Virus record (IMG/VR): IMGVR_UViG_2740892118_000001
Coordinates: 1-6,707 of that record
Length of the DNA: 6,707 nucleotides
Strand: one strand, 5' to 3'
DNA from: a virus
Taxonomy: Duplodnaviria; Heunggongvirae; Uroviricota; Caudoviricetes
Shown here piece after piece: positions 1 through 6,707 of this stretch. The notes beneath the pieces are model-generated. The model saw only the letters and a program-made list of their open reading frames with translations, searched no databases and was not told the DNA's origin. Every line of letters begins with the position of its first letter. Positions within the stretch are counted from its first letter, which is position 1. The position numbers were made by a program, and so were the translations under genes.

Positions 1-72
1 CTGAATAAAAACCGGAGATGATGCCAGTTAGCCATAATCTCTGCATTTTCTTAAACGTTGGTTTGGGAGAAG
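1..72. repeat. Left inverted repeat (IR-L) of the invertible tail-fibre cassette; truncated by the window start
   Basis: Positions 1..72 are the exact reverse complement of 1822..1893, checked base by base. Identity breaks at 73 versus 1821. The leftward extent is unknown because the window begins here. Confidence 0.9.
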
Positions 73-431
73 CGGCAAAACGGGGTGTGGGAACAGGGGA
101 AAATCAGATACCGGACATGGCTTCATTTAGTGGGGTGAGGGATTATTACGGAAAACAACTTTTGCCAGGAGGGTTGATACTTCAGTGGCTGACGATTCCA
201 TCAAGTGCAGCAGCTAAAGCTGTAACACTGAATAATGGTAATTATCAGCTGTCAGGCTATAAATGGCCCCAGTCATTTGGTGTCCTGTTTGCTGTGTTTG
301 CTACAAAAGTTTCTGGCTCGACTAACGAAGCATATGCAATCTCAGTTAATCGTCACTCTACCGATGTAATTGTCACCTGGAATGCCCGTAAGGCTGATGA
401 TGTCCACATTTTAGGAATTGGGAAATTATGA
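18..431 (+). CDS. Tail-fibre tip / receptor-binding module, alternative A (Mu Sv-like position), in the currently upstream-proximal orientation
   Basis: 137-aa ORF starting at ATGATG with GGAG 4 nt upstream. Its first 18 residues ([18 protein letters not shown]) are encoded by the repeat and are identical to the N-terminus of the minus-strand ORF 1421..1876, after which the two proteins diverge. Its stop overlaps the start of the downstream chaperone gene (ATGA at 428..431). The tail-fibre assignment rests on position and the shared N-terminus, not on a recognised domain. Confidence 0.6.
46..71. other. hix/gix/cix-like 26-bp recombination crossover site (left), 12-2-12 with central TT
   Basis: The bottom strand reads TTCTCCCAAACC-AA-CGTTTAAGAAAA, an imperfect dyad with 8 of 12 half-site pairs complementary. 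This matches the recalled Hin/Gin site layout (TTnTCnnAAACC half-sites around a 2-bp core). The inner edge of the site coincides, to within 1 bp, with the point where the two repeat copies diverge. Confidence 0.6.
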
Positions 432-847
432 AAATGAAATGGTCCCCATCTGTTCAGGGATTTTTCTCTGAAAATAACAGCGATATTCCCGATGATGCTT
501 TCGATATTGAAGATGCTCTTTATTATGAACTTATGAATGGTCAGAGTACGGGGAAAATTATTATCAATAACCCGGATAACTACCCTGTACTTACTGAATA
601 TCCAGCGAAGACACAGGAACAGGAAATAGCTGAAGCGGAGGGAATGAAAAGTATACTTATTGAACAGGCCAACGAATACATGAACAGTAAGCAATGGCCT
701 GGTAAAGCCGCTATTGGTCGTCTGAAAGGTGAGGAACTGGCGCAATATAATTTGTGGCTGGATTATCTGGACGCACTGGAACTGGTTGATACCTCCAGTG
801 CGCCAGATATTGAATGGCCTACGCCTCCGGCAGTTCAGGCCAGATGA
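428..847 (+). CDS. Tail-fibre assembly chaperone (Tfa / Mu U / P2 G-like)
   Basis: 139-aa ORF whose C-terminus ([24 protein letters not shown]) matches the conserved C-terminal motif of phage tail-fibre assembly proteins. It is coupled by an ATGA overlap to the preceding tip ORF. Confidence 0.8.
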
Positions 848-1421
848 CATCCGGCGCGGTGCTGGTATCTGTTGCCGTCACCGAGTCAATGTAATCCAGC
901 ACAGCGTTAAGTCGGGTGTTTTCTGTCTGCGTCAGCTTCCGCCCGGCCTGTAATTTCAGCTGAATCAGACTGATGGAAGCCATTGCAGCATCAATCAGCG
1001 ACTGGCGCTGTGCTTCTGCCGCTTCTACTGCGGCGCTATGCTGTGCCTCAGTATCGGTCACCCATTTCTCACCATCCCATTTATCGTATGGCGTTAACGG
1101 TGCGAGAGTGGTTGTATTTTCGGGATAGTCGCCTGGTGCTGTGATTTCTTTGGCATCTCCCGTTTCGGTGTTGTAGACAATTTCACCGCGATGGTCTGGC
1201 ACATATTCCCATGAGTTAAAATCTGCAGAACGGCAGATTGCATAACCAGCTTTATGTGTAACTGGTGCATCTAAACAAGAACATGCCGGGATACCGACGC
1301 CAATGGCAAGATATTCATTTGAAGTAGAAATATATTCCCGAGTTTTACCATCATAGTTATAGACGGTAATATTCCCCGCCTTCGTGGCAATAAGCTCGCT
1401 ATTTAATACGGCGTTATCCAT
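819..1421 (-). CDS. Tail-fibre assembly chaperone, alternative copy (Mu U'-like)
   Basis: 200-aa ORF with C-terminus [26 protein letters not shown], the same Tfa C-terminal motif. Its start overlaps the stop of the upstream tip ORF by 1 nt (TAATG on the minus strand). Its 3' end overlaps the convergent Tfa gene across 819..847. Confidence 0.8.
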   Translation of the reverse strand: MDNAVLNSELIATKAGNITVYNYDGKTREYISTSNEYLAIGVGIPACSCLDAPVTHKAGYAICRSADFNSWEYVPDHRGEIVYNTETGDAKEITAPGDYPENTTTLAPLTPYDKWDGEKWVTDTEAQHSAAVEAAEAQRQSLIDAAMASISLIQLKLQAGRKLTQTENTRLNAVLDYIDSVTATDTSTAPDVIWPELPEA

Positions 1422-1876
1422 TATGCAGCCCTTACGATATAGTTAAATGCAATATTTCGTGGACGGGTTTCGCTCCCGCCATATGATGATGTAAATCCCG
1501 AATATGCCCGGTGTCCCGCATCCGTCGTATTAGCCCAGGAAGGACCGCTAGAAGTATAGATGACCCCATTGTAATCATGGCCGTGTGCCTCAATGCTCCC
1601 GTCCTGAGGAGACAGGAGAGTCCGTCCTGAATCAATTCCTCTTCCATCATCCCACCCACGAATGAATTCGCCGCGTAAATCTGGCAATTTATTTGTCGGA
1701 TAAACTTTTGCCAGTTCCGGATACTCTTCGGCAGAAAAAGCTGCACCGTTGCATTTCAGCCAGCCTGTTGGCGGAGTGGCTGAGGGCCACGGAACAGGCA
1801 CACCAACGGGTAATGCCGAACCTTCTCCCAAACCAACGTTTAAGAAAATGCAGAGATTATGGCTAACTGGCATCAT
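1421..1876 (-). CDS. Tail-fibre tip / receptor-binding module, alternative B (Mu Sv'-like), with a phage tail-collar-type domain
   Basis: 151-aa ORF. It contains the motif block PVPWPSATPPTGWLKCNGAAFSAEEYPELAKVYP...LPDLRGEFIRGWDDGRGIDSGR...NIAFNYIVRA, typical of the C-terminal collar domain of P2 H / Mu S-type fibres. Its N-terminal 18 aa are encoded by IR-R and are identical to those of ORF 18..431. Confidence 0.8.
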   Translation of the reverse strand: MMPVSHNLCIFLNVGLGEGSALPVGVPVPWPSATPPTGWLKCNGAAFSAEEYPELAKVYPTNKLPDLRGEFIRGWDDGRGIDSGRTLLSPQDGSIEAHGHDYNGVIYTSSGPSWANTTDAGHRAYSGFTSSYGGSETRPRNIAFNYIVRAA

Positions 1877-1893
1877 CTCCGGTTTTTATTCAG
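1822..1893. repeat. Right inverted repeat (IR-R) of the invertible tail-fibre cassette
   Basis: Exact reverse complement of 1..72. It ends 11 bp before the invertase start codon at 1904. Confidence 0.9.
1823..1848. other. hix/gix/cix-like 26-bp recombination crossover site (right), 12-2-12 with central AA
   Basis: The top strand reads TTCTCCCAAACC-AA-CGTTTAAGAAAA, the inverted copy of the site at 46..71. It lies 56 bp upstream of the invertase start codon. Confidence 0.6.
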
Positions 1894-1903
1894 GGGGATG
1901 CTC

Positions 1904-2497
1904 ATGCTTATTGGCTATGTACGCGTGTCAACAAATGACCAGAACACGGAATTGCAGCGTAATGCGCTGGAGTGCGCAGGATGTGAGCTGATTTTTGAGG
2001 ACAAAATCAGCGGCACGAAGTCCGACAGGCCGGGGCTGAAAAAACTGCTCAGAACATTATCGGAAGGTGACACTCTGGTTGTCTGGAAGCTGGACAGGCT
2101 GGGGCGTAGTATGCGGCATCTGGTCATTCTGGTTGAGGAACTGCGCGAACGCGGCGTTAATTTTCGCAGCCTGACGGATGCTATTGATACCAGCACGCCG
2201 ATGGGGCGTTTTTTCTTTCATGTGATGGGTGCCCTGGCTGAAATGGAGCGAGAACTCATTGTCGAGCGGACACGCGCCGGACTGGAAGCGGCCAGAGCCA
2301 AAGGTCGTATTGGTGGCAGACGACCGAAACTCACCGCGAGTGAGTGGGAGCAGGCCGGGCGTTTGCTGGCTGCAGGGGAGTCACGTCAACGCGTGGCACT
2401 GATTTTTGATATTGGTCTGTCCACGCTCTATAAAAAATTTCCCTCATCAGCGACAAAGAATAAATTGTGTCATCCCTTAGCCAACCGGGACAAATAG
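1904..2497 (+). CDS. Serine DNA invertase, Gin/Pin/Hin/Cin family
   Basis: The protein begins MLIGYVRVSTNDQNTELQRNAL, which carries the catalytic-serine motif of the resolvase/invertase family. It continues with GDTLVVWKLDRLGRS and MGRFFFHVMGALAEMEREL, and ends with a C-terminal helix-turn-helix region (RQRVALIFDIGLSTLYKK). A GGGGGA Shine-Dalgarno lies 5 nt upstream. I prefer the ATG at 1904 to the track start at 1859 because the recalled Gin N-terminus is MLIGYVRVS and because 1859..1893 lies inside the repeat. Confidence 0.93.
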   Translation: MLIGYVRVSTNDQNTELQRNALECAGCELIFEDKISGTKSDRPGLKKLLRTLSEGDTLVVWKLDRLGRSMRHLVILVEELRERGVNFRSLTDAIDTSTPMGRFFFHVMGALAEMERELIVERTRAGLEAARAKGRIGGRRPKLTASEWEQAGRLLAAGESRQRVALIFDIGLSTLYKKFPSSATKNKLCHPLANRDK

Positions 2498-2556
2498 CCT
2501 GACATCTCCGGCACAACTGAAAATATCACTCACCCATTAACCACGGAGTTAAACGG

Positions 2557-3747
2557 ATGAGTGACTATCATCACGGCGTGCAGGTGCTGGAGATTAACGA
2601 CGGCACCCGCGTCATTTCCACCGTATCCACGGCCATTGTCGGCATGGTCTGCACGGCCAGCGATGCAGATGCGGAAACCTTCCCCCTCAATAAACCGGTG
2701 CTGATTACCAATGTGCAGAGCGCAATTGCAAAGGCCGGTAAAAAAGGCACGCTGGCGGCGTCGTTACAGGCCATCGCTGACCAGTCAAAACCGGTCACCG
2801 TTGTTGTGCGCGTGGAAGACGGCACCGGCGACGACGAAGAAACGAAACTTGCGCAGACCGTTTCCAATATCATCGGCACCACCGACGAAAACGGTCAGTA
2901 CACCGGACTGAAAGCCCTGCTGGCGGCGGAGTCGGTAACCGGTGTTAAACCGCGTATTCTCGGCGTGCCGGGACTGGATACCAAAGAGGTGGCTGTTGCA
3001 CTGGCATCAGTCTGTCAGAAGCTGCGCGCTTTCGGGTATATCAGCGCATGGGGCTGTAAAACCATTTCCGAGGTGAAAGCCTACCGCCAGAATTTCAGCC
3101 AGCGTGAGCTGATGGTCATCTGGCCGGATTTCCTCGCATGGGATACGGTCACCAGTACCACCGCCACCGCGTATGCCACCGCCCGTGCACTGGGGCTGCG
3201 TGCCAAAATCGACCAGGAGCAGGGCTGGCATAAAACGCTGTCCAATGTCGGGGTGAACGGTGTTACCGGCATCAGCGCGTCCGTATTCTGGGATTTGCAG
3301 GAGTCCGGCACCGATGCTGACCTGCTTAACGAGTCAGGCGTCACAACGCTGATTCGCCGTGACGGTTTCCGCTTCTGGGGTAACCGTACCTGCTCTGATG
3401 ACCCGCTGTTCCTCTTTGAAAACTACACCCGCACCGCGCAGGTGCTGGCCGACACGATGGCTGAGGCGCACATGTGGGCGGTGGACAAGCCCATCACCGC
3501 AACGCTGATTCGCGACATCGTTGACGGCATCAATGCCAAATTCCGTGAGCTGAAAACAAACGGCTATATCGTGGATGCGACCTGCTGGTTCAGCGAAGAA
3601 TCCAACGATGCGGAAACCCTTAAGGCCGGAAAACTGTATATCGACTACGACTATACCCCGGTGCCTCCTCTTGAAAACCTGACCCTGCGCCAGCGTATTA
3701 CCGATAAATACCTGGCAAATCTGGTCACCTCGGTTAACAGCAATTAA
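2557..3747 (+). CDS. FI: Contractile tail sheath protein (P2 gpFI-like)
   Basis: 396-aa ORF beginning MSDYHHGVQVLEINDGTRVISTVST, with GGAG 9 nt upstream. Its size, sequence and position immediately before a tube gene match P2 FI. Confidence 0.93.
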   Translation: MSDYHHGVQVLEINDGTRVISTVSTAIVGMVCTASDADAETFPLNKPVLITNVQSAIAKAGKKGTLAASLQAIADQSKPVTVVVRVEDGTGDDEETKLAQTVSNIIGTTDENGQYTGLKALLAAESVTGVKPRILGVPGLDTKEVAVALASVCQKLRAFGYISAWGCKTISEVKAYRQNFSQRELMVIWPDFLAWDTVTSTTATAYATARALGLRAKIDQEQGWHKTLSNVGVNGVTGISASVFWDLQESGTDADLLNESGVTTLIRRDGFRFWGNRTCSDDPLFLFENYTRTAQVLADTMAEAHMWAVDKPITATLIRDIVDGINAKFRELKTNGYIVDATCWFSEESNDAETLKAGKLYIDYDYTPVPPLENLTLRQRITDKYLANLVTSVNSN

Positions 3748-3759
3748 GGAGCCTGACCG

Positions 3760-4278
3760 ATGGCAATGCCGCGCAAACTCAAGTTAATGAACGTCTTTCT
3801 GAACGGCTACAGCTATCAGGGCGTCGCGAAGTCCGTCACGCTACCAAAACTGACCCGTAAGCTCGAAAACTATCGCGGTGCGGGGATGAACGGCAGCGCA
3901 CCGGTAGACCTCGGCCTTGATGACGATGCGCTGTCAATGGAGTGGTCGCTCGGTGGCTTCCCGGATTCGGTTATCTGGGAGCTTTACGCCGCAACCGGTG
4001 TGGATGCCGTGCCGATTCGTTTTGCAGGCTCTTACCAGCGCGACGATACCGGCGAAACGGTGGCCGTCGAAGTGGTCATGCGTGGACGTCAGAAAGAAAT
4101 CGACACCGGCGAGGGTAAACAGGGAGAAGACACCGAGTCGAAAATCTCCGTGGTCTGCACCTATTTCCGGCTGACGATGGACGGTAAGGAGCTGGTCGAA
4201 ATCGACACCATCAACATGATTGAGAAGGTGAACGGCGCCGACCGGCTGGAGCAACACCGCCGAAATATCGGCCTGTGA
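3760..4278 (+). CDS. FII: Tail tube protein (P2 gpFII-like)
   Basis: 172-aa ORF beginning MAMPRKLKLMNVFLNGYSYQGVAKSVTLPKL, with AGGAG 9 nt upstream. It starts 12 nt after the FI stop. Confidence 0.93.
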   Translation: MAMPRKLKLMNVFLNGYSYQGVAKSVTLPKLTRKLENYRGAGMNGSAPVDLGLDDDALSMEWSLGGFPDSVIWELYAATGVDAVPIRFAGSYQRDDTGETVAVEVVMRGRQKEIDTGEGKQGEDTESKISVVCTYFRLTMDGKELVEIDTINMIEKVNGADRLEQHRRNIGL

Positions 4279-4285
4279 TTTTCAT

Positions 4286-4306
4286 CCGGTCAGCCAGGCT
4301 GACCGG
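4286..4306. other. Perfect 21-bp palindrome between FII and E; candidate attenuator hairpin or protein-binding site
   Basis: CCGGTCAGCC-A-GGCTGACCGG has 10-bp arms that are exactly complementary. It starts 8 nt after the FII stop. No T-tract follows on either strand, so it is not a canonical intrinsic terminator. Confidence 0.4.
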
Positions 4307-4334
4307 TTAACCCTGATTCAGAAGTGAGAAAACC

Positions 4335-4610
4335 ATGAACAAAGAAAATGTGATTACCCTGGACAATCCGGTCAAACGTGGTGAGCAGGTCATCGAACAG
4401 GTCACGCTGATGAAACCCAGTGCGGGGACGCTGCGCGGTGTCAGTCTGGCTGCGGTCGCGAACTCCGAAGTCGATGCACTGATTAAGGTGCTGCCGCGCA
4501 TGACTGCACCGATGCTGACCGAGCAGGAAGTCGCCGCACTGGAACTGCCTGACCTTGTGGCGCTGGCCGGTAAGGTGGTCGGTTTTTTGTCGCCGAACTC
4601 GGTACAGTAA
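4335..4610 (+). CDS. E: Tail assembly chaperone (P2 gpE-like), unshifted product
   Basis: 91-aa ORF (MNKENVITLDNPVKRGEQVIEQVTL...) placed between the tube and tape-measure genes. It ends shortly after a TTTTTTG slippery run. Confidence 0.9.
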   Translation: MNKENVITLDNPVKRGEQVIEQVTLMKPSAGTLRGVSLAAVANSEVDALIKVLPRMTAPMLTEQEVAALELPDLVALAGKVVGFLSPNSVQ

Positions 4611-4762
4611 CGTTTCCGAAAAATCTCTCGGTCGATGACCTGATGGCGGATGTGGCAGTGATATTTCACTGGCCGCCATCAGAACTGTATCCCATGAGCC
4701 TGACCGAACTCATCACATGGCGCGAAAAGGCGCTCCGGCGAAGCGGAAACACGAATGAGTAA
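4335..4762 (+). CDS. E': gpE+E' fusion made by a -1 programmed ribosomal frameshift
   Basis: After a -1 slip at T_TTT_TTG (4583..4589) the shifted frame stays open for 58 codons (VAELGTVTFPKNLSVDDLMADVAVIFHWPPSELYPMSLTELITWREKALRRSGNTNE) and stops at TAA 4760..4762, 8 nt inside the T gene. This is the conserved arrangement of tail chaperone pairs (P2 E/E', lambda G/GT). Confidence 0.75.
4583..4589 (+). other. Slippery heptamer T_TTT_TTG for the E/E' -1 frameshift
   Basis: In the E frame it reads GGT TTT TTG. The heptamer lies 19 nt upstream of the E stop codon. Confidence 0.7.
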
Positions 4763-6707
4763 CAATGTAAAATTACAGGTATTGCTCAGGGCTGTTGACC
4801 AGGCATCCCGCCCGTTTAAATCCATCCGTACAGCGAGTAAGTCGCTGTCGGGGGATATCCGGGAAACACAAAAATCACTGCGCGAGCTGAACGGTCAAGC
4901 ATCCCGTATTGAGGGATTCCGCAAGACCAGTGCACAGCTTGCCGTGACTGGTCATGCACTTGAAAAGGCACGGCAGGAAGCCGAAGCCCTTGCCACACAG
5001 TTTAAAAACACCGAACGTCCGACCCGTGCTCAGGCGAAAGTGCTGGAATCCGCAAAGCGTGCGGCGGAGGACTTACAGGCGAAATATAACCGCCTGACAG
5101 ATTCCGTTAAACGCCAGCAGCGGGAACTGGCCGCTGTGGGAATTAATACCCGCAATCTTGCACATGATGAGCAGGGACTGAAAAACCGTATCAGTGAAAC
5201 CACCGCACAGCTTAACCGTCAGCGTGATGCGCTGGCGCGTGTCAGTGCGCAACAGGCAAAACTTAACGCAGTAAAACAGCGTTATCAGGCCGGAAAGGAA
5301 CTGGCCGGAAATATGGCCTCGGTGGGCGCTGCCGGTGTGGGGATTGCGGCGGCGGGAACGATGGCCGGAGTTAAGCTGCTGATGCCCGGTTATGAGTTTG
5401 CGCAGAAAAACTCAGAATTACAGGCTGTGCTCGGTGTGGCAAAAGACTCCGCCGAAATGGCTGCACTACGCAAGCAGGCGCGTCAGCTCGGCGACAACAC
5501 CGCCGCCTCGGCGGATGATGCGGCCGGTGCGCAGATTATCATTGCGAAAGCGGGTGGAGATGTTGATGCCATTCAGGCGGCAACGCCGGTCACACTGAAC
5601 ATGGCGCTGGCGAACCGCCGCACGATGGAAGAAAACGCCGCCCTGCTGATGGGGATGAAATCCGCCTTTCAGCTTTCAAACGATAAGGTCGCTCATATCG
5701 GGGATGTTCTCTCCATGACGATGAACAAAACCGCCGCCGATTTTGACGGCATGAGCGATGCGCTGACCTATGCCGCACCTGTGGCAAAAAATGCCGGTGT
5801 CAGCATTGAAGAAACCGCCGCAATGGTCGGGGCGCTGCATGATGCAAAAATTACCGGTTCAATGGCGGGGACGGGAAGCCGTGCCGTGTTAAGTCGCCTG
5901 CAGGCACCGACGGGAAAAGCATGGGATGCACTGAAAGAGCTTGGTGTGAAAACCTCAGACAGCAAGGGAAACACCCGACCAGTATTTACCATTCTGAAAG
6001 AAATGCAGGCCAGTTTTGAGAAAAACCGGCTCGGTACTGCCCAGCAGGCCGAATACATGAAAACCATTTTCGGGGAGGAGGCAAGCTCAGCCGCCGCCGT
6101 GCTGATGACTGCCGCGTCAACCGGAAAGCTGGACAAACTGACCGCTGCGTTTAAAGCCTCAGACGGGAAGACCGCAGAGCTGGTAAATATCATGCAGGAC
6201 AACCTCGGCGGTGACTTTAAGGAGTTTCAGTCCGCTTATGAGGCGGTGGGGACAGACCTGTTTGACCAGCAGGAAGGCGCACTGCGTAAGCTCACTCAGA
6301 CGGCCACAAAGTATGTGTTAAAACTCGACGGCTGGATCCAGAAAAACAAATCACTGGCGTCAACCATCGGCCTCATTGTCGGTGGTGCACTGGCGCTGAC
6401 TGCTGTCATCGGTGCCATTGGCCTCGTAGCCTGGCCGGTTATCACTGGCATCAATGCCATCATCGCGGCAGCAGGCGCAATGGGGGCAATCTTCACGACG
6501 GTTGGCAGTGCTGTTATGACGGCCATCGGGGCGATTAGCTGGCCGGTTGTGGCCGTGGTGGCCGCCATTGTCGCCGGGGCGTTGCTTATCCGTAAATACT
6601 GGGAGCCTGTCAGCGCATTCTTTGGCGGTGTGGTGGAAGGGCTGAAAGCGGCATTTGCGCCGGTGGGGGAACTGTTCACGCCACTTAAGCCGGTGTTTGA
6701 CTGGCTG
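4755..6707 (+). CDS. T: Tail tape measure protein (P2 gpT-like), 5' partial; the ORF runs off the window end
   Basis: The frame from ATG 4755 is open for 651 codons to the last base of the window. The N-terminal part is rich in heptad-like A/Q/R/L/K/E stretches (MSNNVKLQVLLRAVDQASRPFKSIRTASKSL...). A Gly/Ala/Ile-rich hydrophobic block follows near 6350..6600. It sits immediately downstream of E/E'. The ORF track omits it only because there is no stop within the window. Confidence 0.93.
   Translation, partial: MSNNVKLQVLLRAVDQASRPFKSIRTASKSLSGDIRETQKSLRELNGQASRIEGFRKTSAQLAVTGHALEKARQEAEALATQFKNTERPTRAQAKVLESAKRAAEDLQAKYNRLTDSVKRQQRELAAVGINTRNLAHDEQGLKNRISETTAQLNRQRDALARVSAQQAKLNAVKQRYQAGKELAGNMASVGAAGVGIAAAGTMAGVKLLMPGYEFAQKNSELQAVLGVAKDSAEMAALRKQARQLGDNTAASADDAAGAQIIIAKAGGDVDAIQAATPVTLNMALANRRTMEENAALLMGMKSAFQLSNDKVAHIGDVLSMTMNKTAADFDGMSDALTYAAPVAKNAGVSIEETAAMVGALHDAKITGSMAGTGSRAVLSRLQAPTGKAWDALKELGVKTSDSKGNTRPVFTILKEMQASFEKNRLGTAQQAEYMKTIFGEEASSAAAVLMTAASTGKLDKLTAAFKASDGKTAELVNIMQDNLGGDFKEFQSAYEAVGTDLFDQQEGALRKLTQTATKYVLKLDGWIQKNKSLASTIGLIVGGALALTAVIGAIGLVAWPVITGINAIIAAAGAMGAIFTTVGSAVMTAIGAISWPVVAVVAAIVAGALLIRKYWEPVSAFFGGVVEGLKAAFAPVGELFTPLKPVFDWL

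Follow-up and report, generated by a model that had tools for sequence, protein, structure and literature searches.

A terminal inverted repeat at the invertible tail-fibre cassette of a P2-like Escherichia coli prophage: a probable assembly chimera and a candidate invertase promoter

Introduction

Does the long inverted repeat that encloses the tail-fibre cassette of this prophage belong to the element, and where does the adjoining invertase gene have its promoter? The window, i.e., the whole stretch of 6707 bases analysed here, comes from a P2-like (Peduovirus-type) E. coli prophage with an invertible tail-fibre cassette and a Pin/Gin/Cin-type invertase. A first-pass annotation had described how the identity between the two repeats continues 45 bp beyond the 26-bp crossover sites. 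It had taken this outer part to be either the remnant of an inverted duplication or a second copy maintained for function, with the invertase promoter in the right repeat or site and a mirror promoter on the left, antisense to the fibre gene.

Such loci are known to be difficult for sequence assembly. Clonal E. coli cultures hold both orientations of the e14 and P2-like cassettes (PMC4272514). In E. coli EC958, approximately 50:50 mixtures at the prophage tail-fibre inversions gave rise to spurious contigs (Forde et al. 2014, PMC4134206), and the same study cautions that duplications may be artefactual and that silent 3′ fragments are automatically annotated as tail proteins.

Results

Gene content of the locus

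The features of the window are collected in Table 1. The invertase has its counterpart in the complete genome of E. coli M172-1 (L001) under a 100%-identical match, where it is annotated as a recombinase family protein, and its N-terminus, MLIGYVRVSTND, is the same in Cin and Gin. On its 3′ side follow P2-type tail sheath, tail tube, gpE-type tail assembly, and tape-measure genes, the sheath domains at 2557–3747 being assigned by Pfam. The first 117 nt of the invertase gene align without gaps to P1 cin and D108 gin, and the enhancer annotated in P1 cin at +19 to +90 of the gene corresponds to 1922–1993 of the window. A Pfam search with the product of the ORF at 18–431 gave no match. Its counterpart in M172-1, fragment A, is the 3′ end of a full tail-fibre gene (CDS 4175–5374), and the ORF is labelled as 'hypothetical protein' in flipped-state genomes.

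Table 1. Features of the 6707-base window (positions are window coordinates).
Feature	Position	Strand	Evidence or remark
Bases 1–57	1–57		Reverse-complement copy of 1837–1893; invertase-side flank on the left cassette end, as in the flipped state
ORF 18–431	18–431	+	137 aa; codons 1–13 from the flank copy, remainder tail-fibre C-terminal fragment A
Left crossover site as in the window	46–71	+	TTTTCTTAAACG TT GGTTTGGGAGAA; outer half (46–57) of the invertase-side type
Invertible cassette	58–1836		Between the core dinucleotides TT (58–59) and AA (1835–1836)
Fragment A tail-fibre assembly chaperone	428–847	+	Pfam Caudo_TAP, E = 5.7e-24
Fragment B tail-fibre assembly chaperone (tfaE-like)	819–1421	-	Pfam Caudo_TAP, E = 1.9e-32; annotated tfaE in L001
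Silent tail-fibre C-terminal fragment B	1421–1876	-	Pfam Collar, E = 2.7e-15; annotated 'phage tail protein' in L001
Right (invertase-side) crossover site	1823–1848	+	TTCTCCCAAACC AA CGTTTAAGAAAA; conserved in ~70 related loci
Candidate invertase promoter	1848–1876	+	-35 ATGCAG (1848–1853), 17-nt spacer, extended -10 TGg-CATCAT (1868–1876)
T-run	1883–1887	+	TTTT present in all nine aligned lineages, shortly after the candidate -10
Invertase Shine-Dalgarno GGGGGA	1893–1898	+	Read from the sequence; relatives have a purine-rich block at the same place
Pin/Gin/Cin-type serine DNA invertase	1904–2497	+	197 aa; Pfam Resolvase (E = 2e-52) and HTH_7 (E = 1.1e-12)
Predicted recombinational enhancer	1922–1993		Positional homology with the P1 cin enhancer only

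Judged from its sequence, the locus is an inversion system of the Gin/Pin/Cin/Hin type. It combines a small serine recombinase that has a resolvase domain and a C-terminal helix-turn-helix with two 26-bp imperfectly palindromic inverted sites with a 2-bp core, the segment between them is found in both orientations with the exchange exactly at the core, and this segment holds alternative tail-fibre C-termini with their cognate chaperones (Caudo_TAP twice, Collar once). Both 26-bp sites, the right one and the genuine left one taken from the un-flipped complete genome of M172-1 (TTCTCGCATACC TT GGTTTGGGAGAA), fit the consensus quoted in PMC4134206.

At L006:6938–10491 a similar invertase, ~92% identical in the DNA of its 5′ part, is accompanied by the same flank and the start of the same cassette. 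There the module adjoins an integrase, a DinI-family gene, and a DUF4145 gene and not a tail sheath gene. This difference in gene neighbourhood indicates that the invertase/cassette module is also present in another prophage context.

The repeat in the window

A repeat search of the window returned one outstanding inverted repeat, far above chance expectation, whose two arms of 72 nt (1–72 and 1822–1893) are 100% complementary. In agreement with the first-pass annotation, the identity stops 1 nt past the inner edge of each 26-bp site (46–71 and 1823–1848); on the outside it reaches 45 nt, and the right site is the reverse complement of the left site as it stands in the window. The 45-bp extension is thus present as described, but its extent is cut at the window boundary: as the left arm begins at window base 1, the figure of 45 bp is the distance to the edge of the sequence and not a measured end of the identity.

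The two inversion states in finished genomes

Window 1–2600 was compared by megablast with 5,426 complete E. coli genomes, six of which cover at least 80% of this part in one place. Every match in these six genomes begins at base 53–58 and none at base 1, and the arrangement of the window, with the invertase flank also to the left of the cassette, was found in none of the 5,426 complete E. coli genomes. The best match, M172-1, is 100% identical over 58–2600 in megablast; from base 55/58 to 6707 the identity is 99.95%, and 3 mismatches were counted over 55–6707. Its core-to-core distance is equal to the 1777 nt of the window. To the left of the cassette, M172-1 has the constant part of its tail-fibre gene (CDS 4175–5374), which reads across the left site, and the identity with the window ends where the core TT begins, at base 58.

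The core dinucleotide is the point of strand exchange in the serine invertase family. Sequence outside this point is not homogenised by inversion, as the first-pass annotation had correctly argued, and this explains why the identity in real genomes breaks at the core dinucleotide. The two sites of the real element evidently have only the core and the inner half-site in common (15 nt).

Window 1–140 itself is 100% identical to several complete genomes. The complete genomes of WP8-S18-CRE-02 and 5735 (L004 and L005) match window 1–140 at 100% and 1–1472 at 97.5%; in both, an invertase gene on the other strand directly precedes the matching part, and the fibre gene adjoins the opposite end of the cassette. 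These two carry a prophage of the same kind in its flipped state. The segment therefore occurs in both orientations, un-flipped in M172-1 and flipped in the other two genomes, with the breakpoints of identity at bases 58 and 1836. In the window, the right junction (1836|1837) is that of the un-flipped state and the left junction that of the flipped state, which is impossible in one sequence unless the invertase flank is duplicated.

Terminal repeats in related loci and draft contigs

All fetched loci were oriented on the invertase, the right core was located, and left sites were sought upstream. Among the 42 related loci with an internal left site, the outward identity was 0 nt in 41 and the inward identity typically 13 nt. 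Non-zero outward identity was found only where it met a contig end; L007 had 112 nt, the window 57 nt, and L092 37 nt. In L008 it amounts to ~96 nt and runs up to the contig end and the invertase start. L007 and L008, two small contigs, stem from draft assemblies of isolates, and both of their ends consist of invertase flank; their terminal inverted repeats are perfect, 127 and 111 nt long, respectively, and reach the first invertase codons. In draft contigs of the same element, the left repeat is therefore longer than it is in the window, an outcome that the first-pass annotation had itself named as speaking against its reading.

Further terminal repeats measured 98 nt (L013), 55 nt (L009–L012, L014, and L015), and 52 nt (L092, 37 + 2 + 13), and in several SPAdes-style contigs the first base is exactly 55 nt away from the repeat's inner edge. 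Since the length of the terminal repeat differs between draft assemblies, it is set by the assembly and not by biology. An exact look-up of the 137-aa ORF gave 14 contigs, none identical to the window, and exact scans for the left junction in viral, metagenome, and species-representative genome collections had no match.

Two other loci departed from the usual arrangement. A P2-like phage of E. coli O157:H43 T22 has a 16-nt insertion in the invertase-side site (L002:4030–4090). The insertion copies the fibre-side outer half-site and is followed by a remnant of the usual outer half-site; as a result, the identity between the two sites of this phage covers all 26 bp and extends a few bp beyond. 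A metagenome contig carries a complete invertase on each side of the cassette (L046:565–3591), one of the e14 pin type (565–1155, minus strand) and one of the P2 type (3001–3591, plus strand), with flanks of different types. Because its two invertases differ in type, this contig is most simply read as a chimera between two prophages with a cassette in common; otherwise, it would be a real double-invertase locus.

The right flank as a candidate invertase promoter

The right copy (1849–1903, 55 nt) is genuine and forms the short control region of the invertase gene. To examine its conservation, the 100 nt upstream of the start codon were aligned for nine lineages: the window type, the e14 type, Chris1, YP3, two IMG/VR types, D108/Mu, SfMu, and P88. 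The alignment revealed a fixed order of elements: the 26-bp site, TG, 17 variable nt, TGGCAT(C/G)AT, 6 variable nt, TTTT, the Shine-Dalgarno sequence, and the start codon. In a larger set, TGGCATNAT was found in 67 out of 72 distinct flanks, and 63 of these have it at a distance of exactly 19 nt from the site and 25–27 nt from the start codon.

Nearly all positions that are invariant across the Mu-like, e14-like, and P2-like flanks fit a promoter of the form -35 xTGxxx, 17 nt, and TGn-CATnAT, while the invariant TTTT downstream of the -10 is not accounted for by this arrangement. The bases critical for a promoter are among those conserved (T and G at positions 2 and 3 of the -35, A at position 2 and T at position 6 of the -10), and their spacing is fixed even in diverged relatives, as expected of an extended -10 promoter. 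The predicted transcript start is at ~1882–1884.

A sigma-70 scan, as proposed in the first-pass annotation, gave a mixed outcome. In a rough log-odds scan, the candidate was the best of 1701–1903, but its score of 3.98 lies below the mean best score of shuffled sequences (6.6 ± 2.0). It matches the consensus at 2 of 6 positions in the -35 and 4 of 6 in the -10, and a consensus promoter scan found nothing in 1822–1903. The case for the promoter therefore rests on conservation. We regard TGGCAT(C/G)AT as a plausible weak extended -10 promoter of the invertase gene, although it is not significant from sequence alone. The earlier proposal that the promoter lies in the right repeat or site is plausible and has a specific conserved candidate in 1849–1903 and at the edge of the site.

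Invertases of this kind are generally expressed at a low level, and a weak promoter would agree with this. The candidate -35 abuts the outer edge of the crossover site, and an invertase bound to the site might dampen its own transcription. Autoregulation of the invertase through this overlap of site and promoter could thus be envisaged by analogy with other serine recombinases.

Other readings of the flank were considered as well. In the window, 1865–1884 contains a weak terminator-like hairpin (AACTGG..CCGGTT, then the T-run) just before the ribosome-binding site of the invertase; a terminator was rejected after RNAalifold on the nine-lineage alignment returned 0 pairs and no consensus structure. 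A sigma-54 reading of TGGCA was dropped, as the spacing to any GC element is wrong and not conserved in the alignment, and inspection for an IHF site gave no WATCAA..TTR match across the lineages. In the Mu-like loci L018, L102, and L103, the best promoter-like pair was located inside the gix site (TTTCCT, 16 nt, GATAAT). The equivalent pair in the window (TTCTCC, 15 nt, GAAAAT) has a lower score of 3.03. Because of this lower score, and because it explains no more than one conserved base outside the site, a promoter wholly inside the crossover site is a minor alternative.

Discussion

Origin of the left copy

The evidence from finished genomes and from draft contigs points in the same direction. 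The left arm of the repeat abuts the end of the sequence, it is absent from finished genomes, where the identity breaks at the recombination point, and terminal repeats recur in other draft assemblies with lengths that depend on the assembly. On the strength of these comparisons, we consider it very probable that the left copy in the window is an assembly chimera of the two inversion states at a contig end. Most likely, no single molecule carries bases 1–57 contiguous with the right junction, and the 45-bp outward extension of both repeats is most likely not a feature of the real element, only the right copy being genuine.

Such a chimera could form as follows. A Pin/Gin-type serine invertase flips the tail-fibre C-terminal cassette at the two 26-bp sites with their 2-bp core. 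With both orientations coexisting in a culture, an assembler could enter the cassette from the invertase flank by one junction and leave it by the other. It would then presumably halt on meeting its own reverse complement, leaving a terminal inverted repeat at the contig end. The arm of 72 nt fits no common assembler word length, which we count against a chimera. Word size as an explanation of the arm length was dropped, as any length equals k or k-1 for some odd k.

A true inverted duplication in the source genome, with the invertase flank and perhaps a second invertase on both sides and a repeat longer than the window displays, would also let the arm reach base 1, and the metagenome contig with a full invertase gene on either side of the cassette could be taken as a precedent. 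Yet that contig combines invertases and flanks of two types, as expected if two prophages with a common cassette had been joined into a chimera, and a duplication of this kind was seen neither among the 5,426 complete E. coli genomes nor in 41 of the 42 loci with an internal left site. It would, moreover, separate the constant region of the tail fibre from its C-terminal cassette. We therefore hold a true duplication to be very improbable.

The view that both 45-bp extensions are genuine and under selection, with one promoter directed rightward to the invertase and another leftward from the left copy, antisense to the fibre gene, is scarcely credible to us. The 72-nt identity is indeed perfect within the window, and the right copy does contain a conserved motif, but the extent of the identity is simply the distance to the window edge, and the left copy is missing from the complete genome with 99.95% identity as well as from all other complete loci examined. 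With the left copy not a genuine part of the locus, neither a duplication remnant nor a functionally kept second copy needs to be explained, and the antisense promoter proposed for it has no place in M172-1 or in the other complete loci. The chimera of two inversion states thus remains our preferred reading of the left copy, and the right copy represents the ordinary control region upstream of a Pin/Gin-type invertase gene.

The minus strand of the flank

The conserved TGGCAT can be read on the other strand as well. Its complement, ATGCCA, is the start of a minus-strand ORF that passes through the site and continues in the reading frame of the silent fibre fragment. This StfE-type ORF comprises 151 aa (1421–1876, with the ATG at 1876 or 1873), and in the presumably artefactual left copy it gives rise to the 137-aa ORF at 18–431. 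In e14, stfE begins at the homologous ATG and is a pseudogene in the K-12 annotation. The e14 protein StfE2 has been reported to block T2 adsorption after inversion of the P segment (2025, PMC12529663). According to our reconstruction, it is an ORF of the same kind, with its start in the flank and reading into the fibre fragment, in its flipped-state version.

TGGCAT might therefore have been kept as the start codon of an StfE-type ORF that reads into the invertase-adjacent end of the cassette and encodes a small receptor-binding-domain protein, and not as part of a promoter. The in-frame ATG, an ORF of at least 100 aa in 56 of 67 flanks, the homologous start of stfE, and the reported activity of StfE2 agree with this. 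On the other hand, the motif is equally kept where a stop closes the ORF after 5–10 codons (Mu/D108, SfMu, P88, L030, and L084), and the flank-encoded residues beyond Met-Pro differ between lineages; a coding constraint thus explains the conservation less well than a promoter does. In addition, the Shine-Dalgarno-like GGAG or GGA lies merely 0–3 nt from the ATG, and the pseudogene status of stfE in K-12 does not favour a coding function. We consider this explanation of the motif rather unlikely; the ORF as such is compatible with the promoter reading.

A combination of the two, in which the 55-nt flank would act as a two-way module from Mu-like to P2-like loci, with a weak invertase promoter on the top strand, partly covered by invertase at the adjoining site, and an StfE-type start codon on the bottom strand, whose ORF would be completed by the cassette end next to the invertase, seems improbable. 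If it were true, each inversion state would make one full fibre together with a free receptor-binding-domain protein of the other type, and this free protein would belong to the class of e14 StfE2, reported to block phage adsorption.

Comparison with known inversion systems

The G segment of Mu with Gin (also D108, SfMu, and P88) has the same layout as the window, i.e., a cassette with alternative tail-fibre C-termini and chaperones, a 26-bp site, a short spacer, and an invertase reading away from it. The spacing is also the same, with 19 nt from the site to TGGCATGAT and then 26–27 nt to the start codon. The sites differ (TTCCTGTAAACC.. in Mu, TTCTCCCAAACC.. in the window), and the spacer is otherwise unrelated. 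In the Mu group, the minus-strand ORF of the flank is closed by a stop, and the host phage is Mu-like, whereas that of the window is P2-like.

Closer to the window is the P segment of e14 with PinE in E. coli K-12, which has a near-identical site, a very similar flank, the homologous start of stfE, and likewise a cassette of two fibre fragments and two chaperones. However, e14 is a defective lambdoid remnant, while the window belongs to a P2-like prophage in which sheath, tube, and tape-measure genes follow directly after the invertase. EC958 resembles the window in its P2-like or related prophages, 26-bp sites, and extra or duplicated contigs (PMC4134206); there, both orientations were present in one culture and long reads displayed both alleles, whereas the window is known from assembled sequence alone.

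The C segment of P1 differs more. Its invertase Cin is homologous (~75% DNA identity over the 5′ end) and the enhancer likewise lies in the 5′ coding region, but cin is located on the other side of the segment and is directed at cixL, a site that overlaps the 3′ end of the gene, and the predicted promoters are far from the site. The proposed overlap of promoter and site is therefore limited to the Mu/e14/P2-like layout. In Tn3 and gamma-delta, the small serine resolvase binds a site at res that overlaps its own promoter, which results in autoregulation. These systems encode a resolvase with a three-subsite res and the window an invertase, and Tn3 and gamma-delta serve here as a model for the candidate autoregulation.

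Implications

Invertible prophage cassettes occur in both orientations in ordinary cultures and can lead to contig ends that copy an internal flank in reverse complement. Such contigs mimic a long, functionally kept inverted repeat, and phantom ORFs are the result. The warning signs are three: the repeat arm extends to the end of the contig, finished genomes show a break exactly at the crossover core, and the length of the repeat changes from assembly to assembly. Recognising this pattern spares false leads, and its value is mainly cautionary. For the biology of these phages, TGGCAT(C/G)AT, located 19 nt from the site in Mu-like, e14-like, and P2-like loci, offers a testable candidate for the poorly documented invertase promoter and, at the same time, a handle on the possible autoregulation of the invertase.
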